Both the position numbers and the translations under genes were made by a program. Under the pieces are notes generated by a model. That model made no database searches, was not told where the DNA came from, and worked only from the letters and a program-made list of their open reading frames with translations. Shown one piece after another: positions 4,618-44,452 of a stretch of DNA of 64,000 bases; position 1 is the stretch's first letter, and the number at the start of each line of letters is the position of its first letter. The DNA comes from Alphaproteobacteria bacterium (lineage in GTDB: Bacteria; Pseudomonadota; Alphaproteobacteria; RF32; CAG-239). The stretch spans positions 126,261 to 190,260 of the forward strand of contig JAFTWG010000001.1 in the NCBI GenBank assembly GCA_017465405.1. The letters run 5' to 3'.

Positions 4618-4687
4618 CAGAATATTTAAGACCGAAAGGCTGTGAGACTTATTTCCTTTCACTTACAGCCTTTCATAGGAGAAAGCC

Positions 4688-5652: not shown

Positions 5653-5749
5653 CATTTCGCAAATTTAATTAGTTGTCATCAAGATTATTTTTATCTATCA
5701 TCATCTTACAGCACAAAGAATAATAGATAAAGATGTTAATAGCAGAAAT

Positions 5750-7801: not shown

Positions 7802-8181
7802 CCTTGTATTTTCATATTAAAAATAATTTCAAGCATCGAGTAAACTTTTTATCAATTTAACTTGGTCTTTCATTGCCAATATTTCGCTGTAATGATTGAC
7901 AAGTACATTGTAAAGTTGAGCGGATTTTTCTTTTATTCCTGCGTCCTCCTGCCAGCCAGAGTTCAAAAGTCGTCAAAATGGCGATTTTTTCTTTTATATA
8001 CAAGCATTTAAGCCGGTTCGAAGATTAGCCACCAAATATACTATACCCCAGATAATCTTCGAACTAATTTTAGCAAGAATTTAACATTTTCAATGAGTTA
8101 TGAAGTTCAGCATATATTTAAAATTTTACTTTACATAATGACATCAATCATTTACTCTGAACATTATAGGAGAAAACTCAT

Positions 8182-10448: not shown

Positions 10449-11176
10449 TTAAACCCTCCCAATTTTCTAGTTGCAATATCATAATATTGCTCTTCCAGCT
10501 CTATCCCGTAAAAGCGTCTTTTTGCCTTTAATGCAGCTAACCCTGTAGAACCACTTCCCATAAAAGGATCTAGTACCAAATCGTTCTCATTTGTTAGTAG
10601 CTTTATAAAATGAGATAAAATTTCTTCTGGTTTCTGCGTTGGATGTTTGCCTTCTTTTTGTTCTTTAGCACTAATAACAGCTGATTCTATATAATCATGA
10701 ACAATTTTGCCTTCATTATTGAAAGTACCTGTTTTTCCTTGATTTATAAAATAAATCCAAGCTTCTGTTGAATTGATAAAATGTAGATTCATATTTCTTG
10801 GCATAGGATTTTTTTTATGCCAAATTCCAGTGGTTTTATAATAGAAACCATATTTTTCAGCAATATGAATGATTGTTTCTACTCTTATAATCGACATAAA
10901 CATTATCATAGCGCCACGCTTTTTTAAAACTCTTGCGCTTTCTTGGAAGAATTTATTCATCAATTCCTCCCATTTATCAGCTGCGGCAAAATCCCAATTT
11001 GATGCTGAAAAATGGTTTTTCCTTAATGCTCCAAGGTTTGTTTCTCTATTTTTCATAAACAATCCAAGATTATAAGGAGGATCAGTAAGTATGAGATCAA
11101 CACTTCTATCTCGTATGTCATGCATTTCTGACACACAATCACCTAAACCTAAGACATATTCCTTTTCTTTAATCAT
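10445..11176 (-). CDS. DNA methyltransferase, beta-class N6-adenine/N4-cytosine
   Basis: 'LILTDPPYN' (motif IV) precedes 'DPFMGSGSTG' (motif I). There is a 4-nt ATGA overlap with the downstream m5C methyltransferase. Confidence 0.8.
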   Translation of the reverse strand: MIKEKEYVLGLGDCVSEMHDIRDRSVDLILTDPPYNLGLFMKNRETNLGALRKNHFSASNWDFAAADKWEELMNKFFQESARVLKKRGAMIMFMSIIRVETIIHIAEKYGFYYKTTGIWHKKNPMPRNMNLHFINSTEAWIYFINQGKTGTFNNEGKIVHDYIESAVISAKEQKEGKHPTQKPEEILSHFIKLLTNENDLVLDPFMGSGSTGLAALKAKRRFYGIELEEQYYDIATRKLGGFK

Positions 11177-26690: not shown

Positions 26691-29012
26691 TTAATGACGG
26701 CGCATTACTAAAAGACCTGTTCTTGTTCTCATATACTCTTTTTTAACCCCATTTTGTCTAATGATTTCCGCAATATCATCATATCCTTTTGTTACAGCAT
26801 ATAACATTGCCGTAGACCCATAATTACTTTCCGCATTAACATCGGCACCTTTAGATAAAAGTAATTCAACAATTTCTTTTTTCCCATCATACGATGCCTT
26901 CATCAATGCAGTATCGCCATTATCATCTTTAGCATTAATATCTGCTCCTTTTGATAAAAGTAATTCAACAATTTCTTTATGTCCGTTTGACGATGCATAT
27001 GTCAATGCAGTATAGCCATTATTACTAGCTTTAGCATTAATATCTGCTCCTTTTGATAAAAGTAATTCAACAACTTCTTTTTTTCCGCTCAACGATGCCA
27101 TTATCAATGCAGTACCAACATCATCATTAGCATTAATATCTGCTCCTTTTGATAAAAGTAATTCAACAACTTCTTTTTTTCCATTCAACGATGCAAACAT
27201 TAATGCAGTAAAGCCAGCTTTAGATTTAGCATTAATATCCGCACCTTTAGATAAAAGTAATTCAACAATTTCTTTATATCCTCGACCTGAAGCAGACATT
27301 AATGTGGTATTCCCATCATTCGCTATCACATTAATATTCGTACCTTTAGATAAAAGTAATTCAGCGATTTCTTTATATCCGTCCAGTAAAGCAAGGAAAA
27401 AAGCAGTATACCCATCATTATTTTTCGCATCAACATCAGCACCTTTTGATACAAGAAATTCAACAAATTCTTTATTTCCTAAAGTTGTAGCAAGTATCAA
27501 TGCTGTTTTACCTTCATTATTTTTTGAATTAATATTTGCTCCGCTGTTAATTTCTTTTTCTATATCCTCAAATGTTCGACCGTTTAACCATTCAATATTT
27601 GCGAGTGTATCAGCACTTTTTAAGCACGTGGTACGATCTTCATTTTCTTTACATCTATATAATTCCTTAAAATAACAAGGCTCAAGATATGGATTTGTTT
27701 TTCCAATATTTAATGTACCATAAATGCTAACAGATACTTTTTCGCCTTTAGTGGCTTTTTCTAATTTTTCAGATTCTTCTATACTCATTATACAAGGCAG
27801 AATTTCTGATATATCATAATATGTAATACTATCATAATTATCATTAAATTTCATTATATGAAAATCTTTAATTAGAATATTTTTACCATCATATTTGTCT
27901 GAAGTTCTTTTTCGCCCTCCCGGACTTTCTAAATCTGCGATAATACATCCAAATCCTTTACAAGCCCCTCGAACTCCAGGAATTACCATATCAAATGTAT
28001 AATCTATCTTTGATTTTTTATCTGAAGTATCATCTTCTGAAAATGATAAACGGCTATTAGCATAAACATCACACACTTCCTTTTTTTCCTCTATGTGTTT
28101 AAAAACATTTATAATTTTTTGAATATCATCTTTTTCTAATATATTTAATGGAAAACCATTTATAATTAAGCTTGTAACATTTGTAATTTGGTTTTTGACC
28201 ACAGCTTTATCTGATGGCACTATTTCTGTATTATTATCGGGCTGTGTACTATTAAGGTTAAATTTTTCTTTAATATGATTTAATTTACTATCTAAATCAC
28301 TATCGTTAAAATCAATTTCCATCAATTCTTTATAAACTTCATATGAGTTTTTTCCATTTTGGGAAGCTATCAAAATATCTATAGCTTTTTTAGTATATGT
28401 GTTATCAGTCTCCAGTGGTCTAAATACAAATTTTACATCAGGGTTATCTTGGATTAAGCTATTCAATACAGGGAAAAGTTTTTTTGAATATGGACAGTAA
28501 AAATCAAAAAATTCTGTAATAACAACTTTGGCATCATCTGGACCTACAACTATTCCATTATCATCATTTTCCAGAATCTTTATTTTTTCATTATTTAATT
28601 TTTTAAGATAGTCAGATTTATCTGGTGTCTGGATAATATTAACAACATTTGTTATTTTACAATTTTTGCCATTAGATAAGTTTAATTCTTCTTTCACCTC
28701 TCCGTTCTCGTATTTTGAAAGTAAATTGCCATTTAACACACCATCAATATAATTTGCTTCAATTTCAATTCCACCAGATGGAAAATATGAAGTAAACTTA
28801 CCATTTCTTTTTCCATCTTTATATAATACAACTTTTTCTAATACTTCATTATTATATTTTTTTACAATACCCGTAATCGGTTTTTGTTTTTTGTCATAAC
28901 ATATATTATCCGTATTACAGATAATATCATTATAATTATATTCTTTATCACCACATCCACAAAGTGTTGACAATACAGAAAGCATTAAAAGTGTTTTGTG
29001 TCCGAGTTTCAT
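26691..29012 (-). CDS. multidomain lipoprotein-signal protein: MORN/YwqK-like repeats + DsbA-like (CxxS) thioredoxin domain + 8-9 ankyrin repeats
   Basis: N-terminal 'LSTLCGCG'. MORN-like 'YKDGKRNGKFTSYFPSGG...NYIDGVLNG'. 'VVITEFFDFYCPYSKKLFPVLN...FVFRPL' is homologous to the DsbA at 48156-48884. The C-terminus has highly similar 33-aa ANK units 'GKKEVVELLLSKGADINAK'. Confidence 0.7.
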   Translation of the reverse strand: MKLGHKTLLMLSVLSTLCGCGDKEYNYNDIICNTDNICYDKKQKPITGIVKKYNNEVLEKVVLYKDGKRNGKFTSYFPSGGIEIEANYIDGVLNGNLLSKYENGEVKEELNLSNGKNCKITNVVNIIQTPDKSDYLKKLNNEKIKILENDDNGIVVGPDDAKVVITEFFDFYCPYSKKLFPVLNSLIQDNPDVKFVFRPLETDNTYTKKAIDILIASQNGKNSYEVYKELMEIDFNDSDLDSKLNHIKEKFNLNSTQPDNNTEIVPSDKAVVKNQITNVTSLIINGFPLNILEKDDIQKIINVFKHIEEKKEVCDVYANSRLSFSEDDTSDKKSKIDYTFDMVIPGVRGACKGFGCIIADLESPGGRKRTSDKYDGKNILIKDFHIMKFNDNYDSITYYDISEILPCIMSIEESEKLEKATKGEKVSVSIYGTLNIGKTNPYLEPCYFKELYRCKENEDRTTCLKSADTLANIEWLNGRTFEDIEKEINSGANINSKNNEGKTALILATTLGNKEFVEFLVSKGADVDAKNNDGYTAFFLALLDGYKEIAELLLSKGTNINVIANDGNTTLMSASGRGYKEIVELLLSKGADINAKSKAGFTALMFASLNGKKEVVELLLSKGADINANDDVGTALIMASLSGKKEVVELLLSKGADINAKASNNGYTALTYASSNGHKEIVELLLSKGADINAKDDNGDTALMKASYDGKKEIVELLLSKGADVNAESNYGSTAMLYAVTKGYDDIAEIIRQNGVKKEYMRTRTGLLVMRRH
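26780..27480. repeat. tandem ~99-bp nucleotide repeats inside the ankyrin gene
   Basis: 'agcattaatatctgctccttttgataaaagtaattcaacaa' recurs near 26932, 27032, 27130 and 27228. Confidence 0.7.
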
Positions 29013-29229: not shown

Positions 29230-29835
29230 ATGACAATTTATGCTTATATCAGGGTCAGTTCAGACCAACAGAACTGTGCTAATCAGAAATATAGTTTGGA
29301 TGAATATGCTGCTAAAAATAAAATTAAAATCAATGAATATATAGAAGAAACCATATCTTCAAGAAAGCATCTAAAAGATAGAAAATTAGGTAAATTATTG
29401 GATAAAATTGGTGAACAAGACCTAATCATCACCACTGAAATCTCAAGACTTGGAAGGAATATGCTTGAAGTAATGGGGATTCTCCAACAATGCTTGGAAA
29501 AAGAATGTGAAATCATTACTATAAAGGAAAATTACCATCTTGGTGCTGATATTCAGTCAAAAGTGCTTGCATTTGCATTCTCTCTTGCTGCTGAAATTGA
29601 AAGGCAACTTATCTCCCAAAGAACCAAGGAGTGTCTTAAAAGATTAAAAAATGAAGGCAAACATTTAGGAAGACCATATGGGTTTACATATAAAAAATTA
29701 AAAAAGAAGCATAATAAAATAAAAGAATTATTGGATAAAAATGTATCCAAGGCAGAAATATCAAGATTGATGGGATGCACTTGGTCCACACTTCATAGAT
29801 ACATCAATGAGTTTATAAAAGTAAAAGAACCATAG
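29230..29835 (+). CDS. serine recombinase (resolvase/invertase family) with C-terminal HTH
   Basis: 'IYAYIRVSSDQQ' catalytic Ser motif, 'EISRLGRN', and a C-terminal 'SKAEISRLMGCTWSTLHRY' HTH. Confidence 0.8.
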   Translation: MTIYAYIRVSSDQQNCANQKYSLDEYAAKNKIKINEYIEETISSRKHLKDRKLGKLLDKIGEQDLIITTEISRLGRNMLEVMGILQQCLEKECEIITIKENYHLGADIQSKVLAFAFSLAAEIERQLISQRTKECLKRLKNEGKHLGRPYGFTYKKLKKKHNKIKELLDKNVSKAEISRLMGCTWSTLHRYINEFIKVKEP

Positions 29836-29904
29836 ATTGCTCTATACTCCTAATTAATATTTTTTATAACTTTTTACCTTTGCCCCCAACTTTGACGATG
29901 AACC

Positions 29905-29933
29905 AACAAAAAACCGCCGAAATCGGCGGTTTT
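29905..29933. terminator. hairpin 'aaaaaccgccgaaatcggcggttttt'
   Basis: Inverted repeat with A/T flanks, between the recombinase and tRNA-Asp. Confidence 0.55.
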
Positions 29934-29937
29934 TAAG

Positions 29938-30014
29938 TGGCGGGAGTGACGAGGCTCGAACTCGCGACCTCCTGCGTGACAGGCAGGCGCTCTAACCAAC
30001 TGAGCTACACCCCC
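29938..30014 (-). tRNA. tRNA-Asp (GUC)
   Basis: Reverse complement reads 'GGGGGTGTAGCTCAGTTGGTTAGAGCGCCTGCCTGTCACGCAGGAGGTCGCGAGTTCGAGCCTCGTCACTCCCGCCA'. Anticodon stem cctgc/gcagg with loop ctGTCac, T-loop TTCGAGC, and an encoded CCA. Confidence 0.8.
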
Positions 30015-31580: not shown

Positions 31581-31995
31581 ATACTTCTTTATCAATTCCG
31601 TTGATTGTTAATATATCGGGATTTTTAATAATTTCCGGAAATTCGGTCATACGAAAAACACTTCGCTCATCTGCGCCATCAACAAATGCCGTCACATTAC
31701 CGGAAGCACATTCTATATATCTCTTTGATGCCACTCGCCAAACCTCGGCAATTTTCTCCATATCATCATCATTTTGAGCAAAGTCTTCTAAATTAAGCTC
31801 AAGCAAAGCTTTGCCGCAAGGGGTATAATCAAGAATTGTCGATGACCGATTTTGAGCAACATATTCTTTAGCTTTAATCTTATTTTCTTTTGACGGTTGA
31901 AAACTTACTGAAAAAACTACTACACTGTCTTTTGAAGTTTGCACATCATAAGTTAAAGCAATTTCCATTGCTTTTCGCAATAATTCTTTATCCAT
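31558..31995 (-). CDS. hypothetical protein (145 aa), translationally coupled to clpB
   Basis: Its ATG overlaps the clpB TAA stop by 1 nt (taATG); no motif recognised. Confidence 0.4.
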   Translation of the reverse strand: MDKELLRKAMEIALTYDVQTSKDSVVVFSVSFQPSKENKIKAKEYVAQNRSSTILDYTPCGKALLELNLEDFAQNDDDMEKIAEVWRVASKRYIECASGNVTAFVDGADERSVFRMTEFPEIIKNPDILTINGIDKEVFKSQMGW

Positions 31996-34550
31996 TATAT
32001 TTTCTCTATATCCAGTTCGTTATCTTTGACAACAATACTTGCCGTATCATTATCTGCTATATCTCCATTCAAAATTTTTAAGGCAAGTTTATTTTCTATC
32101 TGTGTTTTTATCAAACGTTTCAACGGACGAGCTCCGAAAATTTCATCATATCCGTTTTCTGAAATCCACGATACCGCAGCATCACTAAAATACAACTTAA
32201 TATTTCGTTCTTCTAATCTTTTTTCAATATTATGCAGTTGTATTTTTGCAATTTGACGAATATCCTCTTTACCCAACTTATGAAACATACTTATTTCATC
32301 TATTCGATTGATAAATTCAGGACGGAATGCCGTTTTAACAACATTCATAACGTCTTCCTTGCTGCCACCACGCATCAAAATATCCGAACCCAAATTTGAT
32401 GTCATAATTATTATGGTATTTTTGAAATCAACCGTACGTCCTTTGCTATCGGTTAAACGTCCGTCATCAAGAACCTGCAACAATATATTAAATACATCGG
32501 GATGCGCCTTCTCAACTTCGTCAAACAGCAAAACTTGATAAGGGCGACGACGAACAGATTCGGTCAAAGCTCCACCCTCTTCATATCCTACATAACCGGG
32601 AGGAGAACCGATAAGACGAGCAACCGCATGCTTTTCCATATATTCCGACATATCAATTCTAAACATTGCGTTTTCATCATTAAACAGAAACTCGGCCAAT
32701 GCTTTACTCAATTCGGTTTTACCGACACCGGTCGGACCTAAAAATAAAAACGATCCGATTGGTTGTTTATGATCACTAATTCCGGCACGAGAGCGACGAA
32801 CCGCATTGGAAACCGCCGAAATGGCATCTTTTTGCCCGACAACTCGTTGAGATAAAAATTCTTCCATACGTAGCAACTTATCTTTTTCGCCTTCCAACAT
32901 TTTATCTACCGGAATCCCCGTCCATTTAGAAATAACTTCAGCTATTGCCGTGTCGGTCACCACCTGTTCCGTTTCATTTTTTTGCTCTTCCGCCAAATTT
33001 TCAAGCTCTTTTAATTTCTTTTCTAATTGCGGAATCTCCCCATATTGCAACTGACCGGCTTTTTCAAATTGTCCATTTCTTTGGGCTATCATTACTTCTA
33101 TTTTAGCTTTGTCCAGCTTGTCTTTTACATCGGTCAAATCAGCCAATGCCTGCTTTTGCGAAAACCACTTTTCAGATAATCTTTTAGCTTTTTCTTCTTC
33201 ATCCGCAATATCTTTTTCTATCTCTTGCAGACGTTTTTTTGATTGTTCATCTTTTTCTTTTTTCAAGGCTTCTCTTTCAATTTTAAGCTGCAATATTTTT
33301 CTGTCTAAGCTATCTAATTCTTCCGGTTTAGAATCTATTGCCATTCTTAAAGCACTGGCGGCCTCATCCATTAAGTCTATTGCCTTGTCCGGTAAAAATC
33401 TGTCACTGATATATCTATCAGACAATGTCACCGCAGAAATTAGAGCGCTGTCCGAAATTCTGACTCCATGATGCAGTTCAAACTTTTCTTTAATTCCTCG
33501 TAAAATGGATATACTTTCTTCAATTCCGGGTTCTGCAACAAAAACCGGTTGGAAACGTCGAGCCAAAGCAGCATCTTTTTCAACATATTTTTTATATTCA
33601 TTTAATGTTGTTGCCCCCAAACAATGCAGTTCACCTCTGGCTAAAGCAGGTTTTAATAAATTAGAGGCATCCATAGAACCTTCACTTGCTCCGGCACCGA
33701 CAATTGTATGCATTTCATCAATAAACAAAATTATTTGTCCTTCCGATGCTTCGACATCTTTTAAAACTGCTTTTAAGCGTTCTTCAAACTCACCTCTGAA
33801 CTTTGCTCCGGCAATCAATGCTCCCATATCAAGAGCTAACAACCTTTTTCCTTTTAGACTTTCCGGAACATCATTATTGATAATACGCATTGCCAAGCCT
33901 TCAACAATTGCTGTTTTTCCTACTCCGGGTTCTCCGATAAGAACCGGATTATTTTTGGTTCTGCGTGATAAAACTTGAACCGAACGGCGAATTTCATTAT
34001 CTCTACCGATGACCGGATCAAGTTTTCCTTCTTTCGCTTTTGCCGTAATATCTATTGCATATTTTTTTAGAGCTTCAAAATTGTCTTCGGCATTTACACT
34101 ATCAGCTAAACGTCCTTGACGATAATCAGAAATAACCTGATTCATTTTTTGCGGATTGATGTCATTATTTTTCAAAATATTATATGCTTCGTTTCCGGCT
34201 GTTGTTACTAATGCTTGCAACAAACGCTCGACCGTAACATATTTATCGTTAGCTTTATCGGCAATTTTTTCCGCAGATAGTGTAACGGCAGAAAAATCTT
34301 GTGAAGCAACAGTTTGAACATTACCTGACACTTGCGGAATTTTTAAAAAAGCTTCATTCACATCATTTTTAAGACGGCTGATATTTCCACCGGATTGTGT
34401 AATTATCTTTTCTATTACATTATCATTTTCATCAAGCATGGCTTTTAACAGGTGAAGCGCCGTAATATACTGATGTTGAGATGCAATTGCATTATTAATT
34501 GCTGTTTTAATAAGTTCTTGAGAACGAGTAGTAAACTTTTCCGAATTCAT
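31995..34550 (-). CDS. clpB: chaperone ClpB (Hsp104/Hsp100 disaggregase)
   Basis: Two AAA modules ('[15 protein letters not shown]', '[17 protein letters not shown]') and a coiled-coil middle domain. True start '[11 protein letters not shown]' is at 34550 with an aggag RBS; the track ORF extends to 34613. Confidence 0.95.
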
Positions 34551-34666
34551 CTTGATATCTCCTATATGTAATATATAGTTAACGACAAATTGCAAAATCA
34601 AGTATCCAAACAAAAAAACCTCTCCGTTTCCGAAGAGGTTTTTTAATACCTTATATTAAATTGAAA

Positions 34667-35035
34667 TTACTTCAATTCAACTTTAGCACCAGCGTCTTCA
34701 AGTTTCTTCTTGATTTCTTCAGCTTCAGCCTTAGGAGCATTTTCCTTAATAGTTTTAGGAGCACCATCAACTAAATCTTTAGCTTCTTTCAAGCCTAATT
34801 GAGTGATAGCACGGATTTCTTTAATAACATTGATTTTGTTATCACCGGCAGCAACCAAAACTACTTCGAATTCATCTTTTTCTTCAGCAGCGGCAGCACC
34901 AGCACCCGGAGCAGCTACAGCAACAGCAGCGGCAGCAGAAACGCCCCATTTTTCTTCTAACATTTTTGAAAGATCAGCAGCTTCCATAACAGTCAAAGCT
35001 GACAATTCATCTACTAACTTGGCTAAATCGGCCAT
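34667..35035 (-). CDS. rplL: 50S ribosomal protein L7/L12
   Basis: '[22 protein letters not shown]...' with an Ala-rich hinge and conserved C-terminal domain. Confidence 0.95.
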
Positions 35036-36520: not shown

Positions 36521-36961
36521 CTACTCCACTACTTTAACGCCCATAGAAACAGCTTGACCTTTAACCATATTCATAGCTGCTTCAACTGTTGAACAATTCA
36601 AGTCAGGAAGTTTTGCAGTAGCAATTTCTCTTACTTGATCCATGGTAATTTGACCAGCAACAGTTTTGCCCGGTTCTTTAGAAGCAGACTTAATTTTTGC
36701 AGCGGTCTTGATGTAGTAAGCAACCGGAGGAAGCTTTGTAATGAATGTGAAAGACTTATCTTCAAAAGCTGTAATAACTACAGGAACAGGAATACCCGGT
36801 TCCATTTTTTGAGTAGCAGCATTGAAAGCCTTACAAAATTCCATAATATTCAAGCCTTTTTGACCCAATGCAGGACCAACCGGAGGAGAAGGGTTTGCCT
36901 TTCCAGCGGGGATTTGAAGCTTGATTAATCCTAAAATCTTCTTTTTAGATTTAACAGCCAT
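36521..36961 (-). CDS. rplK: 50S ribosomal protein L11
   Basis: '[22 protein letters not shown]' L11 signature. Confidence 0.95.
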
Positions 36962-37118
36962 TTTAATACCTCACTTTAGGTTTGTGGTAAGATTATGGCT
37001 AATCCCCCACAAATTATTATAAATACACGATTCGCATTTCGATAGAACAGAGTCCTGTCGAAATGTTGCCTCTGTATAACACAACAATTTAATTTTGCAA
37101 GCTTTTTTTTACAAAAAA

Positions 37119-38882
37119 TTAATCAATTTTTATTTTTAGCAATTCTTCACATTGCTTATCCATTTGTTCTTCGACGTTAACATAATTTTTTACTATGTCA
37201 TCAATATCGGCTTGGGTAATTTTTCGTTCTCGCAAGTCTATGGCTTTATAATCTTTTCCATAGACAGAGTAATAATCCTCGTACTTCAAATCCCCACCGA
37301 TTATTTCATCAGAAAAAGAAACTCGTTTGTTTGGAATCCCCAAAGCATCAGCAAATATTAAACCATGCAAAGAAGAAGATAAAATGCAATAACAATCCAT
37401 CATATCACGTAAAACTTGTATCGGAGTATCTTCAACTGTAATAATTTTCACATTATCAGGTATAACATTTTTTATACTTTCTTCATTTTTATCATAGAAG
37501 TGAGGAATTACACCAATATACTTACCTTTGGGACGATTATAGTCCTTAACTATTTCCCTTATCAAAACAGCCGGATCCGCAGTTATACTTACATTAATCC
37601 CCAGTAATTGCTTTATCTTTTCTTGAGATTTTTTTCCTCTTATCGCAAATATATTAAGTTTTCTTCCAAATTTTTCCGGGAACACAATATCTCGATGCAT
37701 TCCTGTACCTATTATAGTAATTTCTTTCTTTTCACGAACATTTCCCTCAAATATACGCGACAACAAAGAGCCTACACAATATAAATTTGCTCGATTAAGA
37801 TTAGGTATTACACACCAACCATAAATATAACGAGCAATATAAAGATTAAGCATGTCTCCAAAATTCGAAAAACCGGAAAAAACAGCCATTCTCCAGATTT
37901 TTCTTTTTCCCGGATATCGTCTTTTTCTGGTCACATACCAACATTTTAAATATGTAATAATCTTTTTAAAATAAGAGACTTTGGAATATTTGATAATATT
38001 TTCTGTTAAAACACAGCCATTATTTTTTGCAAAATCATATATTTTTTCCAGTTCTGCACTTTCAAACCCGTATTTTTTTATATCTGCAAAAACTTTTCTG
38101 AAAACTTTTTTATACTTTCGCAATAATAGTTTTCTGTATTCAGGAATATAACGTATATTGATTTCCCCACCCAGAACTGCATATAAATTTTTTATAAGAG
38201 CGTTTTGTCCTTGATATATTCCCTCCGCACTTATCCTGTACATATACGAACAATCAGGCAACACCGCCAAATTTCCAAATTTCAACATATAAAGGGTCAT
38301 TGTTGTATCATTTACAAAATTATATGGAAAATTTTGCGGAAAACCAAAATAAAAAATATTTCTGAAAGTAATAGAACAATTATGTACATATAATTTTTCT
38401 TGAATATACGACACTATGGAATAAATTTTAACTTCTTCACAAATAGGGTGAGGTTTCATATTTCCATTTTCTTGAACAAGAGTATGCCCGCTTCCGCATC
38501 CTATACATTTAGGATTTGCATTCAATACATCAACTTGTTTTTGAAATTTATATTCATCTCCGTAATAATCATCACCATCAAGCAACATAAAAAATTTGCC
38601 TTTAGCGTGTTTAATTAAATTTAAACGATTCGAAGCAGCTTTTTCGATATTTATGCAGTTCAAATCTGCGCAAAAAGATTCATACACCTTAATAAAATCA
38701 TATTTATCAGTGTATTCCTTTATTATTTTCAGGCTTTCTTCCTTTTTACCATCAAGTCCGATTAGCACTTCATAATCAAAGTTTGTTTTTTGACATACAA
38801 TACTATTTAATGTATTTCGTATATATTTTTCTTGATTACAAAAAGTTACACACACAGATAACGTTACCATAATGAGCTCCAA
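37119..38882 (-). CDS. bifunctional glycosyltransferase: N-terminal GT2 family + C-terminal polysaccharide pyruvyl-transferase-like domain
   Basis: N-terminal 'VTLSVCVTFCNQEKYIRNTLNSIVCQ...DYEVLIGLDG...FMLLDGDDYY' shows the GT-A DxD. The C-terminal half 'FSNFGDMLNLYIARYI...IIGTGMH' resembles PS_pyruv_trans. Confidence 0.55.
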   Translation of the reverse strand: MELIMVTLSVCVTFCNQEKYIRNTLNSIVCQKTNFDYEVLIGLDGKKEESLKIIKEYTDKYDFIKVYESFCADLNCINIEKAASNRLNLIKHAKGKFFMLLDGDDYYGDEYKFQKQVDVLNANPKCIGCGSGHTLVQENGNMKPHPICEEVKIYSIVSYIQEKLYVHNCSITFRNIFYFGFPQNFPYNFVNDTTMTLYMLKFGNLAVLPDCSYMYRISAEGIYQGQNALIKNLYAVLGGEINIRYIPEYRKLLLRKYKKVFRKVFADIKKYGFESAELEKIYDFAKNNGCVLTENIIKYSKVSYFKKIITYLKCWYVTRKRRYPGKRKIWRMAVFSGFSNFGDMLNLYIARYIYGWCVIPNLNRANLYCVGSLLSRIFEGNVREKKEITIIGTGMHRDIVFPEKFGRKLNIFAIRGKKSQEKIKQLLGINVSITADPAVLIREIVKDYNRPKGKYIGVIPHFYDKNEESIKNVIPDNVKIITVEDTPIQVLRDMMDCYCILSSSLHGLIFADALGIPNKRVSFSDEIIGGDLKYEDYYSVYGKDYKAIDLRERKITQADIDDIVKNYVNVEEQMDKQCEELLKIKID

Positions 38883-38960
38883 CAGTACAAAATAATAATT
38901 ACCTACATAACATAATATTATAAATATGCAACTTTATTTTATTTATTCTATAAAAAACAA

Positions 38961-38990
38961 AAAAGGTCGCATATCTCTATGCGACCTTTT
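38961..38990. terminator. hairpin 'ggtcgcatatctctatgcgacc' with A/T flanks
   Basis: Inverted repeat between mscL and the GT gene. Confidence 0.5.
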
Positions 38991-39010
38991 TGCACCATAA
39001 AAAATTATGA

Positions 39011-39499
39011 TTATTTTTTAGCTCTCGGTTTTCTTGCTTTTGGAGCATCTTCCTTAGCCTTTTCAGACTTCAATTCAGAAGTACAATGAGGGCAACGAGT
39101 AGCTTTTATATCAACAGTTGAACAACAAAACGGACACTGCTTGGTTGTCGGAGCTGCAGCTTCCGCATCAGCTTCTTTTTTATCCAATGCAGATTGAAGC
39201 TTGTTTAATGCCTTAATTAAAATGAACACGGCAAAAGCCACAATGATAAAACTGATTAACGCATTAAAGAACAAACCATAGTTAATAGAAACAGGATTTT
39301 CTCCTGAAGAAATAACCCATTTCAAATCTGAAAAATCAACCTTACCTAATAACAAACCGATAGGAGGCATAATTACATCTTTAACCATTGAGTCAACAAT
39401 TTTACCGAAAGCGGCACCGATGATAATACCGACAGCCATATCAATAACATTGCCACGCATTGCGAATTTTTTAAATTCCGTAAAAAAAGATTTTATCAT
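39011..39499 (-). CDS. mscL: large-conductance mechanosensitive channel MscL with C-terminal zinc-ribbon extension
   Basis: '[20 protein letters not shown]' is the MscL TM1 signature. The C-terminal '[18 protein letters not shown]' is a CxxC..CxxC ribbon followed by a Lys/Arg tail. Confidence 0.8.
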
Positions 39500-39526
39500 T
39501 TTTAGTTCCTTACATTAGTTTACAAA

Positions 39527-39556
39527 TAAAAAAGGCTGAAAATATCGCTTTCCAGC
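39527..39556 (-). terminator. terminator downstream of nusG
   Basis: Minus-strand hairpin 'ggctggaaagcgatattttcagcc' followed by 'ttttttatttg'. Confidence 0.5.
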
Positions 39557-39578
39557 CCTAAATTTTTCATATTGCCGG

Positions 39579-40109
39579 TTAAATTTTTTCAACCTGATTA
39601 AAGTCTAAATCAACCGGAGTCGGACGACCGAAAATAGAAACAGAAAGTTTCAAACGAGATTTTTCTGTATCAACATCTTCAACCAAACCGATAAATGAAG
39701 CAAACGGACCATCACAAACTCTGACTTGTTCGCCAACTTCAAATTTGATAATGGTTTGCGGACGTTCAACACCTTCTTCAATTTGTTTGATAATACGCTC
39801 TGCTTCTGCATCAGAAATCGGGAGAGGCTTATTTCTCGGCCCCAAAAATCCGGTAACACGAGGAGTGTTTTTAATAACCATCCAACAATCGTCTGACATT
39901 TCCATTTTCACCAAGACATATCCCGGGAAAAATTTACGTTCAGAGTTTACTTTGGTACCCTTCTTAACTTCAACAACATTCTCGGTAGGCACCATAACCT
40001 CAAGAATTTTATCTTCCATATTTTTTAATACGGCTTGTTCTCTAAGCGATTCGGCAACCTTTTTCTCAGAACCGGAATAAACGTGAACAACATACCAACG
40101 AGCGGCCAT
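39579..40109 (-). CDS. nusG: transcription antiterminator NusG
   Basis: 'WYVVHVYSGSEKKV' N-terminal NGN domain and KOW motif. ATG at 40109 has an AGGAG RBS; the track uses a TTG at 40127. Confidence 0.9.
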   Translation of the reverse strand: MAARWYVVHVYSGSEKKVAESLREQAVLKNMEDKILEVMVPTENVVEVKKGTKVNSERKFFPGYVLVKMEMSDDCWMVIKNTPRVTGFLGPRNKPLPISDAEAERIIKQIEEGVERPQTIIKFEVGEQVRVCDGPFASFIGLVEDVDTEKSRLKLSVSIFGRPTPVDLDFNQVEKI

Positions 40110-40119: not shown

Positions 40120-40308
40120 CTAACCAAAGATTAATTTAACGAGAAAGCCGAAAAACTGATCAACAAAAAAGAAAAATGTTGCAGCAATAGCGACCAAAAC
40201 CAAAACCATAAAAGAAGTTTGTGTAACTTCTCCTCTTGTCGGCCATGTAACTTTTTTAACCTCTTGTTTTACTTGTCTGAAAAATGTAATCGGATTAACT
40301 TTTGCCAT
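40120..40308 (-). CDS. secE: preprotein translocase subunit SecE
   Basis: 62 aa, 'FFRQVKQEVKKVTWPTRGEV' followed by one TM helix. Canonical position upstream of nusG. Confidence 0.85.
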   Translation of the reverse strand: MAKVNPITFFRQVKQEVKKVTWPTRGEVTQTSFMVLVLVAIAATFFFFVDQFFGFLVKLIFG

Positions 40309-40540
40309 CGACTTTACCCAAATATAAAAACTTTAAACCCAACACCGAAAATCGGCGAAACCACAACTGCAAACATTATCGAATTTAGCCTCGATATGTA
40401 TCGCAGACTTTTTAAGTTGTGCTTAATAAATATCTTTTAAGGCGATATGTCAAGCAATTATTTTATAATATCCTGATTTTTACTGTTTTTATACATATAA
40501 AGCCGGAGGTTATCCGGCTTTATATTCTTTTGTAAAAAAA

Positions 40541-41782
40541 TTAGCTCAAGTCTTTTCGGGTTCCATCCATATTAATTAACGTCTTTACTCCGTCAGCAAC
40601 TAACACATCCAGTTGTTTACCGAATTTCTTAGAACGTTTTAGCATAGTTACGATTTTACCTTCTTTCTGCAACTCTTTAGCTGTTTTTACTACATCTGCA
40701 AAAGACACATTGTCATCATAAGCCAAAACAACTTTTTCATTCATAAGTGGAACAAAACCTTCTTCTTGCAGAATGGCAGAAATTCGTTCAAATCCGATAG
40801 AAAAACCAACCGCCGGAACAGATTCTCCCAAAAACTTGCCAATCATACCGTCATAACGACCACCGCCGGCAACTGAAGAGCCAAATTTAGGGCTGACAAT
40901 TTCAAAAACCATACCGGTATAATATCCCATTCCTCTAACCAAAGACTTGTCATATACCGCTGTATATTTTCCGTCAGATACGGAATTGGCGAAATCTAAA
41001 ACTTTTTTAAGATTTTCAACCACATCTTTATTAGAACAATATTTTTCCGCAGCCGATAAAGCATTTTCATCTGCTACGCTCAAAATATCTATAAATTTCG
41101 CAACCACCTCAGAAGAATATTCTTTTTCCAAAAGCTCGTTTTTAACCCCGTCCAAACCTATTTTATCAAGTTTGTCAAAACTGATGCAAACAGAAGAAAC
41201 ATCATCAGCATTAAATCCTGCCGATAAAATCATATCAGTTAAAATGCGTCTATCATTGATTCTGACCGTAAAATCGCTAAAACCAATATCTTGCAGAGCA
41301 GAAGTAGTAGCTGCAATCAATTCCATTTCCGCATTTATACTTGCATCGCCGATTATATCAATATCGCATTGATAAAATTCACGCAACCGACCTTTTTGAG
41401 GTCTTTCAGCGCGAAATACCTTATCAATTTGCAAAGCCTTAAAGGGGGATGAAAGAAGATGTCTGTTGTTTGCATAATAACGAGATAAAGGCATTGTTAA
41501 GTCATAGCGGAGACCACTATCAACCAAATCATTTTCGGTTAAATTTTCTTGAGATAAATCCAATTTTTGTCCGCGTTTAAGCAATTTGAATATCATTGCT
41601 AAATTTTCGCCACCGTCACTTTGATTTAATCTGTCAATATCTTCCATAATCGGAGTATTAATCTTATTAAATCCGTAGCTCTTATATGAATTTTCAATTT
41701 TAGAACGCAAATAATCTCTGATTTCCACCTCTTTGGGCAAAAAATCTTTTGTGCCGCGAACCGGCAATGTGCTCATTTTCAT
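40541..41782 (-). CDS. hisS: histidine--tRNA ligase
   Basis: Class II aaRS motifs 'GTKDFLP', 'FRAERPQKGRLREFYQCD' and 'GGGRYDGM'. Start 'MKMSTLPVRG' is at 41782; the track starts at 41830. Confidence 0.9.
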   Translation of the reverse strand: MKMSTLPVRGTKDFLPKEVEIRDYLRSKIENSYKSYGFNKINTPIMEDIDRLNQSDGGENLAMIFKLLKRGQKLDLSQENLTENDLVDSGLRYDLTMPLSRYYANNRHLLSSPFKALQIDKVFRAERPQKGRLREFYQCDIDIIGDASINAEMELIAATTSALQDIGFSDFTVRINDRRILTDMILSAGFNADDVSSVCISFDKLDKIGLDGVKNELLEKEYSSEVVAKFIDILSVADENALSAAEKYCSNKDVVENLKKVLDFANSVSDGKYTAVYDKSLVRGMGYYTGMVFEIVSPKFGSSVAGGGRYDGMIGKFLGESVPAVGFSIGFERISAILQEEGFVPLMNEKVVLAYDDNVSFADVVKTAKELQKEGKIVTMLKRSKKFGKQLDVLVADGVKTLINMDGTRKDLS

Positions 41783-41910
41783 CTTTCTTTCCCTTATTTT
41801 ATACAAACAACAGCAACTTTTATAAAACACAAATAAACATAAATCAATTTTTTTATTATAACTTTCTTTAAGATAATCTTACTGATTTTATTTATACAAT
41901 AAAAAAAAGG

Positions 41911-41938
41911 CCCTAAAGGACCTTTTTTAGAAAACTGC
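41911..41938. terminator. hairpin 'aaaaaaaaggccctaaaggacctttttt'
   Basis: Inverted repeat with A/T flanks. Confidence 0.5.
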
Positions 41939-41944
41939 TTTCAA

Positions 41945-42415
41945 TCAGATAATCACTTTCTGAGGTGCTGCCGCTTTGAGAACAAAGTGCAAATACACGT
42001 CAGAACGTTCCACACCATCATCACACTTCACACCGTTATCCCAACAGTATCGGGCATCAATCCGTCCATGCCAATCAGTATATACCGATGATGTTTTGGC
42101 TTGCTCAATCTCAAAATCGAACTGCCTGCTGCAAGAGTTAAACTCGGCAATTTCATCTGCCGCAACCAAACGAGCCCATAAACAGTTTGGATTTTTCTCA
42201 CGAAATTCCGCCACATAGGCATACGCTTCTTCCAAAGTCAGATTTTTTGCGAACGGAACTGCCGACATATAGACATTAACCTCCTCAACCGCAAAAATCC
42301 CCTTAGAACAATCGTGAAAACGATCTGTCTTTAGCCAAGCTACAAAACGTTTGCTTTTAACATCTGCATCTGCGAGATGAAAAAAATCTTCGTTCAGAAA
42401 TTTAATTTTTTCCAT
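41945..42415 (-). CDS. hypothetical protein (156 aa), markedly higher GC than surroundings
   Basis: ORF with about 45% GC by eye against a ~30% background. Confidence 0.4.
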   Translation of the reverse strand: MEKIKFLNEDFFHLADADVKSKRFVAWLKTDRFHDCSKGIFAVEEVNVYMSAVPFAKNLTLEEAYAYVAEFREKNPNCLWARLVAADEIAEFNSCSRQFDFEIEQAKTSSVYTDWHGRIDARYCWDNGVKCDDGVERSDVYLHFVLKAAAPQKVII

Positions 42416-42570
42416 AGTTTTGGTTTTGATTTAATTTAATAAAAATATCTTTTCATAAACTAAACATTATCATAGATTTCTTTGATAATCAACCGCCTTT
42501 TTCGATTAACATACAACAAAAACAAGCCCAATCCTAATGATTGAGCTTGTTGCATGGCAATATCAAAATA

Positions 42571-43155
42571 TTATTCTCCTTGATCACCTTTTCCAAAAAA
42601 TTTAGCAAGTCTTGATGATATGTTACTGCTTTGTGCATCTTGTTTTTTATACTTTGCAACAGTATTTTTAGCATCCATGGGAATACCATTTTCTTTTCTA
42701 TTGTGTTCTACAGTCATAACTCTAGACTTTTCAATATCACGTATTTTTCCGTCTTTTGTAATTGCACCGCTTTTCACATCTTCAAAATATCTAAAAGTTA
42801 TATCAGCTACTAAATAAGGATTGACATCATCTCCCATCGCTAAATCATATCGCTCATGAGCCTTTTTCATATCCTCTCTTGAAATTTCTGTTACATCAGT
42901 TGGTAATTTTCTTATAAGATGTGCAGCTGCTAATGTTGATAATACCAGTTCAGGAGAATCAGAAAACTTCTCAGGATTAACTTCTTTGAGAGCTTCCATT
43001 CTAACCTTTAGAATTTCTGGTATTGCTTCTACCTCATCTGGCCATTTAGAAACTGTTTTTGACAATTCAGATTTACGTCTTTGATACATTCTTTCCATAA
43101 GCTCAGATACTTTATCTACATTTTCTTCAGTTACTCTTATGCCTTCCCATCCCAT
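42571..43155 (-). CDS. hypothetical protein (194 aa)
   Basis: ORF only. Confidence 0.35.
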   Translation of the reverse strand: MGWEGIRVTEENVDKVSELMERMYQRRKSELSKTVSKWPDEVEAIPEILKVRMEALKEVNPEKFSDSPELVLSTLAAAHLIRKLPTDVTEISREDMKKAHERYDLAMGDDVNPYLVADITFRYFEDVKSGAITKDGKIRDIEKSRVMTVEHNRKENGIPMDAKNTVAKYKKQDAQSSNISSRLAKFFGKGDQGE

Positions 43156-43386
43156 TTTATTCTCTCCCCTAATAAATGATTTAACTAGCAGTTATAATAT
43201 CACACTTTATAAAAAAAACAACGCCATTATGACAAAATCATTGTTAAAATTTTTGTCCAGATAAATAAGCAAACAAATCTTTAAAGTCTTTTTATCAATA
43301 AACAAAAAAACTCTTTACTTTAGACAAAATTTATAGTATTAGTGTAACTAATAACTAAATTATTAACATCTATTAAATTTAAAGAA

Positions 43387-44136
43387 ATGGAACAGAAAAT
43401 CGTTAATTTTGTGGTTTCCCATAGTGAAATCAGTGCAGAAGATTTTGAAAAAATGACTTGGGCAGAACAAGTTGACTACATCTTACTGCATCTTGCAGGT
43501 GGTAGCAATCGTTGGTGCATCAACAAAAACTTCATGAGTTTCATGGCTCAATGTGGTAAGGAATGCATTAAGATGGATAGACAGACAGGACAAAAACTTG
43601 CTCCTACACTATTTGTTATCGCTATGCAACGACTTTCAAAGGGTGCGGTACTGCACGATGTGGTAAACTTTAAGGAACAGTTATCAAACAGATTTTGGCT
43701 ATATTCGTCGGCTCATGATGACTATCATATCATGACGCCTGATTGTCTAGAATTTATCTACAACGGCCTTATGGTTGCTGCACAACTTGAACCTACTAGA
43801 GATTATGCTCTAAAAATCGCTTGGGGGCTCACTGAACATCTTGACGAAAACGGCAATTGCCTCAATGGTTTTGACTTGTACTGCGAAAATTCAGCAGAAG
43901 AAGGGAAAAAATTATATGCTAAGGCTATTGAAATCATCGAAAAAACTGCATCCGCAGAGGATATCTTTTCTCGATATTCAAAACCGGGACAGTGGCAAAA
44001 GCACAAGCTGTGGCTGAAAAACTATCTCATGGAAAACAATCGCTGGAACGACTTTTTCAAAAAGATAGACGTTTCTACGAGTTTGTTTAATTTTCGCAAA
44101 CGTATGCAAATAATCCGAGAGATTAAATGTGCATAA
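43387..44136 (+). CDS. hypothetical protein (249 aa)
   Basis: ORF with about 40% GC, followed by a strong terminator. Confidence 0.4.
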   Translation: MEQKIVNFVVSHSEISAEDFEKMTWAEQVDYILLHLAGGSNRWCINKNFMSFMAQCGKECIKMDRQTGQKLAPTLFVIAMQRLSKGAVLHDVVNFKEQLSNRFWLYSSAHDDYHIMTPDCLEFIYNGLMVAAQLEPTRDYALKIAWGLTEHLDENGNCLNGFDLYCENSAEEGKKLYAKAIEIIEKTASAEDIFSRYSKPGQWQKHKLWLKNYLMENNRWNDFFKKIDVSTSLFNFRKRMQIIREIKCA

Positions 44137-44160
44137 AGTAGCACAATGATTTAAACAATA

Positions 44161-44190
44161 AAAAAAGACCGCTTTCAACGGTCTTTTTTT
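44161..44190 (+). terminator. rho-independent terminator 'aaaaaagaccgctttcaacggtcttttttt'
   Basis: Perfect stem plus a T7 run. Confidence 0.7.
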
Positions 44191-44211
44191 ATTGGCAGGG
44201 GCAGTAAGATT
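44184..44211. repeat. direct repeat copy 1: duplicated tRNA-Trp 3' end plus downstream flank (att-like)
   Basis: 'tttttttattggcaggggcagtaagatt' matches 44369-44395 at every base except a single extra T in the T-run. Confidence 0.7.
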
Positions 44212-44348
44212 GACTTGATTTATAAAAATCTGCGTCGCACTGGCGCTCATTGGCTTTTGCCAACCGCGATACCCGGTATCGCTTTCGCTTGTAGTCAAAC
44301 TCACTTTCTCGTGAGTTCGAACCATAACTTTCCCTATTGCCAACAAAA

Positions 44349-44376
44349 AAACCACCTAAAAAGGTGGCTTTTTTAT
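44349..44376. terminator. hairpin 'aaaaaaaccacctaaaaaggtggctttttt' immediately 3' of tRNA-Trp
   Basis: Inverted repeat that could terminate in either direction. Confidence 0.55.
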
Positions 44377-44395
44377 TGGCAGGGGCAGTAAGATT
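44369..44395. repeat. direct repeat copy 2 (part of tRNA-Trp 3' end)
   Basis: See copy 1. Confidence 0.7.
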
Positions 44396-44452
44396 CGAAC
44401 TCACGACACTCGGTTTTGGAGACCGATGCTCTACCAACTGAGCTATACCCCT
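44377..44452 (-). tRNA. tRNA-Trp (CCA)
   Basis: Reverse complement 'AGGGGTATAGCTCAGTTGGTAGAGCATCGGTCTCCAAAACCGAGTGTCGTGAGTTCGAATCTTACTGCCCCTGCCA'. Anticodon stem tcggt/accga with loop ctCCAaa, T-loop TTCGAAT, and an encoded CCA. Confidence 0.85.

Follow-up and report, generated by a model that had tools for sequence, protein, structure and literature searches.

A clade-fixed mscL and a variable cargo slot, here holding a predicted glycosyltransferase-pyruvyltransferase fusion, lie between nusG and rplK in an uncultured alphaproteobacterium

The interval between nusG and rplK in this alphaproteobacterial genome probably combines two layers: an mscL gene fixed throughout the clade, and a cargo slot that here carries a predicted enzyme adding a sugar and capping it with pyruvate in one protein. 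The window (the whole 64-kb stretch of DNA that was analyzed) shows the following order on the minus strand, to which all coordinates below refer: secE, nusG, a terminator, mscL, a terminator, a gene fusing a family 2 glycosyltransferase (GT2) to a pyruvyltransferase-like domain, the rplK promoter, and rplKAJL. The location of the two genes between nusG and rplK, as given in the original prediction, was confirmed in the sequence. Their interpretation as unrelated genes that arrived in one 2.4-kb insertion was not, as mscL is ancestral in the clade and the glycosyltransferase gene alone is variable.

The secE gene lies at 40120-40308 and nusG at 39579-40109 (TIGR00922, 231.5 bits; PF02357 plus KOW). 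The NusG product was assigned 176 residues from the ATG at 40109, the length also found in its relatives; the mechanically called reading frame starts at a TTG at 40127. A terminator-like hairpin and T tract follow nusG (39532-39559; an 11-pair stem with 4 G-C pairs, then TTTTATTT). The ATG of mscL (39011-39499, 162 residues) lies approximately 32 nt beyond this hairpin, and no promoter-like site was found between the two. A second terminator-like hairpin with a T tract (38960-38991; a 14-pair stem, 100% complementary) follows mscL and bounds the cargo slot on its left side. The proposed terminator of nusG is thus upheld as a terminator-like site, and mscL has one of its own; the 8-kb region contains 15 terminator-like sites, versus 4.7 +/- 2.0 in shuffled sequences. 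The full mechanical reading frame of the fusion gene spans 37119-38882, and its likely start is the ATG at 38870, which is preceded by GGAG. The resulting gene (37119-38870) encodes 583 residues that are 100% identical to a database protein named 'MAG: glycosyltransferase [Alphaproteobacteria bacterium]' (P0001). The right border of the slot is a putative rplK promoter, assigned from its sequence (37073-37100; TTGCAA, 16 nt, TGTGT-TATACA). It is followed by a leader (36962-37072), conserved in the multi-locus alignment and containing the near-invariant TTGTGGGGGATTAGCCATAATCTTACCACAAACCT, and by rplK itself (L11; 36521-36961; TIGR01632, 200 bits), the first gene of rplKAJL. An Rfam search of the whole window at gathering scores returned two tRNAs only; at E<=1 the rplK leader gave only a chance match to a CRISPR repeat and no known ribosomal-protein leader family.

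A set of 25 related loci, with nusG 77-99% identical, was compared with the window. mscL directly follows nusG in 23 of the 25 and in the window; its position between nusG and rplKAJL is therefore ancestral in this clade of uncultured gut and rumen alphaproteobacteria. The original prediction had allowed that relatives might show the arrangement as ancestral, which is what was found for mscL, whereas the fusion part is variable. The order nusG-mscL-fusion-rplK is kept in loci whose fusion proteins are 84%, 75%, and 53% identical. The description of the nusG-rplK junction as highly conserved holds for more distant genomes (Endolissoclinum, Pelagibacteraceae, Rickettsiales), where nusG mostly adjoins rplK, but the junction is broken in the clade and also in cultivated Gluconobacter, in which Pqi-like genes on the opposite strand follow nusG. 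Masked sequence was considered as the cause of the missing rplK in the Gluconobacter loci and rejected, as no N runs were present. The break is a lineage trait and not a singular event. If mscL and the glycosyltransferase gene had arrived together, as one recent 2.4-kb insertion into an otherwise intact secE-nusG-rplK cluster of the source genome, this would fit the adjacency of nusG and rplK in distant genomes, the terminator-like sites of both genes, and the low G+C of the fusion gene (0.301, versus 0.34 for the window and 0.36-0.41 for its neighbors). Such an event is nevertheless very improbable: mscL is found after nusG with or without the glycosyltransferase gene, rplK comes directly after mscL in six loci, and the G+C of mscL (0.358) is ordinary for the window. 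This indicates that mscL and the fusion gene have different histories.

The MscL protein comprises a channel core (residues 1-121), a putative zinc ribbon with the motif CPFC-N10-CPHC (residues 122-139; 39083-39136), and a variable tail rich in Lys, Arg, Ala, and Pro (39014-39082; 23 residues, nine of them Lys or Arg), which marks the left edge of the variable region. The two CxxC pairs and the basic tail named in the original prediction are thus present. The protein passed three MscL family models: PF01741 (E 4.7e-42; 143.6 bits, cut-off 27.4), TIGR00220 (134.1 bits, cut-off 71), and NF001843 (157.4 bits, cut-off 142), the last two being NCBIfam equivalog models. Profile coverage stops early (up to 111 of 123 positions in Pfam and 119 of 135 in NCBIfam), and only residues 4-121 align to E. 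coli MscL, at residues 2-119 (E 4.8e-33). The canonical C-terminal helix, which forms a bundle, is absent, as the alignment ends at residue 121 and the ribbon begins at residue 122. Membership of the MscL family does not depend on this helix. The channel core is homologous to that of canonical MscL (E. coli; M. tuberculosis, 2OAR), but their C-terminal helix, of the LLxEIRDxL type seen in motif-less representatives, gives way here to the ribbon and basic tail.

The ribbon is no local oddity; the homologs point to a subfamily found across phyla. CxxC-N10-CxxC was present in 118 of 120 close homologs and in 130 of the 150 best 50%-identity cluster representatives, and the spacing was 10 in every sequence with the motif (118/118 and 130/130). 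Holders include Waddlia and Salinisphaeraceae. Judged by these sequences, MscL proteins with CxxC-N10-CxxC are a widespread cross-phylum subfamily with a putative zinc ribbon in place of the C-terminal helix. The tail alone gave only sub-threshold matches to curated zinc-ribbon models (E 0.02-0.4), and a precomputed PF13248 match exists for two close relatives. Full-text literature searches, incomplete in coverage, returned no description of a zinc ribbon or zinc finger in MscL. Since the pentameric C-terminal bundle has given way to the ribbon, gating or assembly in this subfamily could depend on zinc or on redox state. Its spread over phyla, including cultivated Waddlia, makes it a cheap target for channel biophysics.

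Between the mscL terminator and the rplK promoter lies a hypervariable spacer with alternative cargos. Slot contents were counted in the 21 loci with both mscL and rplK downstream. The slot was empty (210-245 bp) in six loci; in four others it measured approximately 560-640 bp without a long reading frame, and at least three of these hold a short reverse-strand reading frame. Rfam detected nothing in the ~600-bp spacers of L017 and L021, where such a short reverse-strand frame was found instead. Glycan genes, always including a PS_pyruv_trans domain, occupied eight loci; two of these, L005 and L006, share their records with L002 and L001. An EcoRI-type methylase with a GmrSD/HNH nuclease was present in one locus and small lipoproteins in two. 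GT2, pyruvyltransferase, and Fe-S genes and an IS200-type transposase are among the cargos of the relatives. The borders, namely the mscL terminator on one side and the rplK promoter and leader on the other, are conserved whatever the cargo. A hairpin equivalent to the mscL terminator and the rplK promoter were found in empty-slot relatives as well, and CTTGCAAA and TTGTGnTATA are invariant in 10 loci with any cargo. A comparison of L004 (gene present) with L024 (slot empty) located the breakpoints: the two loci show 96% identity starting at the final 5 nt of the fusion reading frame, and the left breakpoint falls inside the part of mscL that encodes the tail. The only flanking repeat, an AT-rich direct match of 15/17 positions (37009-37025 and 38910-38926), is probably due to chance, since one of its copies falls within the conserved leader and empty slots have this leader too.

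The fusion protein is more divergent than HisS and ClpB, being 75-84% identical between genomes in which these two are 94-99% identical. Sliding-window comparison revealed a hypervariable mosaic segment (37461-37853; residues ~340-470) in which alleles with 90-100% identity over the rest of the gene drop to 38-55%, and one allele (P0002) changes its closest relative within the gene. This part of the pyruvyltransferase domain probably faces the acceptor. Errors in metagenome assembly or binning are hardly credible as the source of the slot's variability. All related loci except the distant ones do come from metagenome-assembled genomes or metagenome contigs, the gene order of L007 is permuted, and L010 carries an implausible 'Bacteroidaceae' label. 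However, independent samples and assemblers yield the same arrangement, on contigs as long as 713 kb, with collinear flanks and with precise junctions that are found repeatedly (e.g., L002, L003, and L005).

No integrase, att-like repeat, tRNA, or mobility gene was found at the slot of the window, and the mechanism of exchange is therefore read from the pattern of variation. The ~30-bp stretch from the mscL terminator to the rplK promoter would be a hot spot for recombination and cargo, at which alleles and cargos are swapped by homologous recombination through the conserved flanks. The cassette might otherwise be the passenger of a mobile element, of the IS200/IS605 type or similar, that targets the spacer without homologous exchange. 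This is quite unlikely. An IS200-like Y1 transposase fragment does adjoin the fusion gene in L015, the only locus with such a fragment, and other mobile and defense genes are present in the window away from the slot; yet no transposase, integrase, or terminal repeat was detected at the slot in the window, L001, L002, or L004. The breakpoints fall at conserved flanks and not at element ends, and mosaicism within the gene fits homologous exchange.

The fusion gene encodes a GT2 domain, a helical linker, and a compact pyruvyltransferase domain, as indicated by Pfam and an AF2 model of the full-length protein (pLDDT 88, pTM 0.89). Both domains named in the original prediction were recovered above the gathering cut-offs. 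PF00535 matched residues 9-146 (E 1.8e-16, 61 bits, cut-off 23.3) within a GT-A domain of residues 1-215 (38226-38870). The DxD motif L-D98-G-D100-D101 does not vary among 15 sequences with identities as low as 32%, and D188 (N-D-T), a candidate for the catalytic base Asp, is invariant among the fusion homologs. Foldseek matched the GT-A fold of the model to TarS, TarP, RmlT, SpsA, and K4CP with probability 1.0, with E values of 1e-8 to 1e-10 for enzymes of the TarS/TarP/RmlT/SpsA type, and phmmer against PDB sequences matched the fusion to TarS (5tze). TarS and TarP of S. aureus, RmlT of Listeria, and SpsA of B. subtilis share the fold, the DxD motif, and a post-catalytic helical extension; they differ in their low identity (13-18%) and in carrying trimerisation or other C-terminal domains and no pyruvyltransferase. 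No hydrophobic segment of transmembrane strength was found in the fusion protein.

The C-terminal domain (37122-37904; residues 323-583) matched PF04230 at residues 364-517 (E 6.6e-13, 49.6 bits, cut-off 25.3), a match that spans profile positions 60-272 of 280 only. The domain is compact, without the insert of ~45 residues found in larger PF04230 members. N336-F-G338-D339, R411, D432, H502, and K529 are invariant, and S415 is nearly so. The NxGD, Rxxx(S/T), and His motifs are those of pyruvyltransferases (PMC10629545); in the fusion, NxGD, RxxxS (R411-G-K-K-S415), and His are kept across homologs down to 32% identity. Mutation of R148 or H308 inactivates CsaB (PMC10435577), and the equivalents of CsaB R148, H308, and K328 are invariant here as R411, H502, and K529. 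A second Arg contacts phosphoenolpyruvate in CsaB (R306) and Pvg1p (R337), two positions ahead of the His; throughout the subfamily this site is occupied by Ser or Ala. Full-length pyruvyltransferases in the slots of L002 and L028 also have Ser at this position, so this Arg is not universal in the PF04230 family. Single-sequence and profile searches of PDB sequences reached no pyruvyltransferase, neither WbbZ nor Pvg1p; only the structure searches did. The full-length model gave only GT-A matches against the PDB because the N-terminal domain dominates, and the C-terminal domain was therefore modeled separately. Its GT-B-like fold is nearest to solved pyruvyltransferases.

The C-terminal domain might instead be another GT-B-like enzyme, such as a second glycosyltransferase or a TagF-like glycerophosphotransferase, or an inactive scaffold. 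This alternative is unlikely. The PF04230 score lies above the cut-off with no match to Glyphos_transf or GT-B glycosyltransferase families, and the invariance of the three motifs also argues against it. The closest stand-alone homologs (260-300 residues, 30-40% identity) all carry PF04230, with members named 'polysaccharide pyruvyl transferase family' in Lactococcus, Acinetobacter, Proteus, and Hahella, and WbbZ (6x1l) was the best match in both structural searches. A pyruvyltransferase domain remains the preferred assignment.

The closest known system is the Klebsiella wbbY-wbbZ locus, an unlinked glycosyltransferase and pyruvyltransferase locus that extends the O antigen and caps it with pyruvate (PMC10629545). 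The K. pneumoniae O1 locus likewise pairs a glycosyltransferase with a compact pyruvyltransferase of ~260 residues, apart from the main glycan cluster, and the NxGD, RxxxS/T, and His motifs of WbbZ all occur in the fusion. The differences are clear: WbbZ is only 16% identical to the fusion domain, wbbY and wbbZ are two divergently transcribed genes instead of one fused 583-residue polypeptide, WbbY is a polymerase with two glycosyltransferase modules where the fusion has one GT2 module, and the fusion gene sits between mscL and rplK. CsaB of Paenibacillus alvei and Pvg1p of S. pombe (5AX7) share PF04230 and the GT-B-like fold of two Rossmann halves. They differ in the Arg position described above, in lacking a GT2 fusion, and, for CsaB, in size (~400 versus ~260 residues); the fusion has no link to SLH-domain anchoring or N-glycans. 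No published description of a glycosyltransferase-pyruvyltransferase fusion was found in literature of incomplete coverage.

Variable surface-glycan loci between housekeeping genes are well known, for example the O-antigen clusters between galF and gnd. Like these, the slot lies between conserved flanks, takes alternative cargos, is low in G+C, and is far more divergent than the sequence on either side. Unlike them, it is tiny (one to three genes), encodes a modifying step and not a whole pathway, also takes a methylase-nuclease pair and lipoprotein genes, and abuts the promoter of a ribosomal protein operon.

By analogy with wbbY-wbbZ, the most likely function of the fusion would be a module that adds a sugar and caps it with pyruvate. 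In the clade, a zinc-ribbon-type mscL became fixed between nusG and rplKAJL; in the source genome, the slot beside it contains one self-contained gene, whose product would be a cytoplasmic enzyme not bound to the membrane. Its inverting GT-A domain may transfer one sugar from a nucleotide-sugar donor to a glycan acceptor whose synthesis is encoded elsewhere in the genome, and the WbbZ/Pvg1p-type domain may place a ketal-pyruvate from phosphoenolpyruvate on the added sugar. This would give O antigen, capsule, or another envelope glycan an anionic cap or side group, perhaps under phage or host selection. A partner flippase or polymerase, which the original prediction had suggested looking for, was not found in the window: its reading frames of at least 120 residues include no Wzx, Wzy, ABC exporter, further glycosyltransferase, or acceptor-making gene.

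Two further readings, independent of each other, are rather doubtful: that the spacer is a dedicated serotype-switching site, and that MscL is zinc- or redox-dependent. One-protein modules and alternative pyruvylation cassettes could then swap at the mscL-rplK spacer by recombination, residues ~340-470 could be the exchanged specificity cassette, and the pyruvate cap could be a chain-terminating or export signal of O antigen.

In sum, all parts of this locus belong to known families, and current knowledge is not overturned. The acceptor choice of pyruvyltransferases has been described as little understood (PMC10435577, PMC10629545), and the mosaic region would offer a natural experiment on it if the prediction is true. 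In that case, the fusion would be a minimal, portable one-gene module that equips a surface glycan with a pyruvylated sugar, which is anionic and resembles sialic acid. It might then serve as a glyco-engineering tool, and would help explain antigenic variation in abundant uncultured alphaproteobacteria of the gut and rumen.

The locus lies on the minus strand in the order hisS (40541-41830), secE (40120-40308), nusG (39579-40109), mscL (39011-39499), a long ORF (37119-38870/38882), and rplK (36521-36961), the last followed by rplA, rplJ, and rplL. For the long ORF, the most likely start codon is the ATG at 38870, which has a GGAG just upstream. Its 583-aa product, a fusion of a GT2 glycosyltransferase and a pyruvyltransferase, is identical to the database protein 'MAG: glycosyltransferase [Alphaproteobacteria bacterium]'. 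Terminator-like hairpins follow nusG (39559-39532) and mscL (38991-38960), and no terminator was found between the fusion gene and rplK. In the nusG-mscL spacer (39500-39578), only ~32 nt, in which no promoter-like site was seen, separate the hairpin from the mscL start codon; mscL may be expressed by read-through of the terminator of nusG, itself a termination factor gene, or from a promoter within nusG.

The original prediction was correct in each item of this description (gene order, nusG terminator, fused domains, and MscL tail), and it read mscL and the fusion gene as a ~2.4-kb insertion between nusG and rplK. The genes do intervene, but they have two different histories. The comparison covered loci that encode fusion-protein relatives and, from one genome per species, 62 loci around nusG homologs; the window's ten proteins were mapped onto all of these. 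The related set (L001-L028, minus three incomplete or rearranged loci; nusG 77-99% identical) comes entirely from MAGs of uncultured gut, rumen, or faecal 'Alphaproteobacteria', 'Rhodospirillales', and 'Azospirillum sp.', or from metagenome contigs. In every related locus nusG is directly followed by mscL, except in one pair (L023 and L026) with unrelated genes downstream of nusG. In most distant genomes, including those of Endolissoclinum, Pelagibacteraceae, and Rickettsiales, nusG adjoins rplK. This indicates that mscL after nusG is a fixed, ancestral feature of the clade. The nusG-rplK junction is also less inviolable than had been supposed, as it is broken in cultivated Gluconobacter, where Pqi-like genes on the opposite strand follow nusG. 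The apparent insertion is thus a clade-wide placement of mscL plus a small recombining slot, which here carries an apparently rare GT2-pyruvyltransferase fusion.

Other junctions of the region also vary. In the window, clpB (31995-35035, minus strand) directly follows rplL in place of rpoB-rpoC, and other genes occupy this position in L004, a related locus; in this clade, then, rplKAJL and rpoBC are no longer linked either. The usual neighbor preceding secE is tRNA-Trp. In the window hisS stands there, and tRNA-Trp (44377-44452) lies ~4 kb further upstream, with three unannotated ORFs in between (40309-44452). On the short L007 contig (6035 bp in all), secE-nusG-mscL is downstream of rplKAJL; either the order is truly rearranged, or the contig is circularly permuted or misjoined. 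L010, an alphaproteobacterial secE-nusG-mscL contig with a 91% identical nusG, sits in a 'Bacteroidaceae bacterium' bin, probably through a binning error.

The slot, extending from the mscL hairpin to the putative rplK promoter, was surveyed in the 21 loci having both mscL and a downstream rplK. It is empty (210-245 bp) in L012, L013, L014, L016, L024, and L025, and measures ~560-640 bp without a long ORF in L017-L019 and L021. The fusion gene occurs alone in the window, L001/L006, and L004, and with an IS200-like transposase fragment in L015. In L002/L003/L005 it is accompanied by a GT2 gene and a gene for a Fer4/FrhB/pyruvyltransferase protein; L011 has the same two companions but, of the fusion itself, just the GT2 half. 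Other cargos are a GT2-aldo/keto reductase with an acetyltransferase/Fer4/FrhB protein and a pyruvyltransferase (L028), an EcoRI-type methylase with a GmrSD/HNH nuclease (L027), and two or three lipoprotein genes (140-145 aa) on the opposite strand (L008 and L009). All the glycan-type cargos include a PS_pyruv_trans domain. Both borders stay the same: the left one is the mscL terminator, and the right one is a conserved promoter-like CTTGCAAA...TTGTGnTATA with the strongly conserved rplK leader behind it. The window's cargo takes the place of a stretch that measures ~30 bp in empty slots. L004, which carries the gene, and L024, which is empty, share 91% identity up to the mscL 3' tail and 96% from a point 5 nt before the end of the fusion ORF, with 1.9 kb swapped for ~110 bp in between. 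The variable basic tail of MscL thus borders the exchanged segment.

Several slot elements deserve separate mention. The rplK leader (36962-37072) hardly varies within the clade; it includes TTGTGGGGGATTAGCCATAATCTTACCACAAACCT and a TTGTGG/CCACAA stem, matched no Rfam family, and is a candidate L1/L11 autoregulatory leader. Two 4Fe-4S motifs and an FrhB/FdhB (F420-dehydrogenase beta-like) domain are joined to a pyruvyltransferase or acetyltransferase in L002:5617-7998, L011:9343-11703, and L028:10165-11925. The lipoprotein-like genes, found in two species as two or three tandem paralogs (L008:8143-9140 and L009:6446-7958), had no Pfam match. A short conserved reverse-strand ORF with its own hairpin is present in at least three of the ~600-bp spacers (L017:8029-8671, L018, and L019) and beside the IS200-like gene (L015:8979-9287); the L021 spacer is arranged similarly, but its sequence has no match to those of L017-L019.

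The domain calls for the fusion protein hold, as both the N-terminal GT2 (PF00535, E 1.8e-16) and the C-terminal PS_pyruv_trans (PF04230, E 6.6e-13) matches exceed the curated cut-offs. In the AF2 model, which is confident (pLDDT 88, pTM 0.89), a helical linker (~220-315) lies between a GT-A domain (1-215) and a two-lobed alpha/beta domain (~323-583). The matches to the full model are GT-A enzymes of wall-polymer decoration: TarS, TarP, RmlT, SpsA, and chondroitin polymerase. PDB sequence searches with the fusion protein did not reach WbbZ (6x1l), the best structural match of the C-terminal domain; WbbZ caps the O1 antigen of Klebsiella, and its pyruvyltransferase activity has been validated by experiment (PMC10629545). 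In an alignment of 15 homologs, down to 32% identity, the invariant residues are L-D98-G-D100-D101 (DxD) and D188 in the GT2 part, and N336-F-G338-D339, R411, D432-P, H502-G, and K529 in the C-terminal part; S415 of R411-x-x-x-S415 is nearly invariant. The motifs conserved in glycan pyruvyltransferases, NxGD, Rxxx(S/T), and a His (PMC10629545), are all present. R411, H502, and K529 are the counterparts of R148, H308, and K328 of the ketal-pyruvyltransferase CsaB, which is inactivated by mutation of R148 or by replacement of H308 with Ala or Arg (PMC10435577). The equivalent of CsaB R306, by contrast, is Ser or Ala, as also in the full-length pyruvyltransferases of L002 and L028. Stand-alone homologs of the C-terminal domain (260-300 aa, 30-40% identity, 'polysaccharide pyruvyl transferase family') occur in Lactococcus, Acinetobacter, Proteus, Hahella, and others. 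The fusion protein has no hydrophobic segment of transmembrane strength and is therefore expected to work in the cytoplasm, the site of PEP and nucleotide sugars.

In the proposed mechanism, the GT2 domain would attach one sugar to an acceptor glycan whose synthesis is encoded elsewhere in the genome, and the pyruvyltransferase domain would then place a ketal-pyruvate on this sugar and so give it a negative charge. Nearest in function is the unlinked wbbY-wbbZ locus of Klebsiella, from which the fusion differs in being a single polypeptide that has one glycosyltransferase module. The target could be an O antigen, a capsule, or another polymer. Among the ORFs of at least 120 aa in the 64-kb window, the search for a partner flippase or polymerase was negative, and neither an exporter nor any further glycan gene turned up. 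From the LptF/G gene that the window does contain, one can conclude only that the organism produces LPS.

The fusion protein diverges faster than its neighbors. HisS and ClpB of the window are 96-99% identical to those of L002, but the fusion protein only 75%; for L001, the values are 94-95% and 84%. The divergence is mainly at residues ~340-470 (38-55% identity), while the GT2 core and the last 100 residues retain 90-100%. P0002, a database homolog, is 100% identical to the window's protein across windows spanning residues ~21-200 and nearer to another homolog, P0004, at residues 381-440. The G+C content is 0.301 for the fusion gene, versus 0.34 for the window and 0.36-0.41 for neighboring genes. 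This pattern is that of a surface-antigen locus swapped via conserved flanks, and phage or host may be the selecting agent.

MscL, a full match to the curated models, follows E. coli MscL up to residue 121 (E. coli residue 119), just before the E. coli C-terminal helix. The predicted ribbon begins at residue 122, with CPFC-N10-CPHC followed by 23 residues including nine Lys/Arg. The CxxC-N10-CxxC motif is present in 118 of the 120 closest homologs. When 1.84 billion cluster representatives were searched exhaustively, the best 150 included 130 with the motif, always with a spacing of 10, and most of the other 20 end in the canonical LLxEIRDxL helix. Among named taxa, the motif occurs for example in Salinisphaeraceae and Waddlia chondrophila (WP_013182521.1). 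This alternative MscL C terminus is thus widespread rather than peculiar to this locus; the Lys/Arg tail occurs only in close relatives. A literature search found no report of a zinc-ribbon MscL. The ribbon may stabilize the pentamer or form a cytoplasmic sieve, and may respond to zinc or redox state.

A second variable slot (window ~41857-41887; L001:2700-5011) is empty in the window; in the close relative L001 it holds, between a 156-aa ORF and hisS, a gene for a 729-aa fusion of GT2 and CDP-glycerol glycerophosphotransferase (Glyphos_transf). The clade may tend to carry single-gene bifunctional glycan-modifying cassettes in the spacers between housekeeping genes. Elsewhere in the window, a mobile/defense-type region (139-11176 and 29230-30014) encodes an AbiEii-like AAA ATPase, a phage-type integrase, a DUF234 ATPase, and C5- and N6/N4-DNA methylases, and a resolvase gene adjoins tRNA-Asp. 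MORN, DsbA/thioredoxin, and many ankyrin repeats occur together in a 773-aa protein (26691-29012), and a separate 177-aa protein has ankyrin repeats (3604-4137); MORN and ankyrin repeats are eukaryote-like features, here in a gut alphaproteobacterium.

In sum, all components of the locus fall in known families. What is new is the fused architecture, the pyruvylation-biased slot beside the putative rplK promoter, and the mosaic, presumably acceptor-side region of the predicted enzyme, which are variants rather than new kinds.
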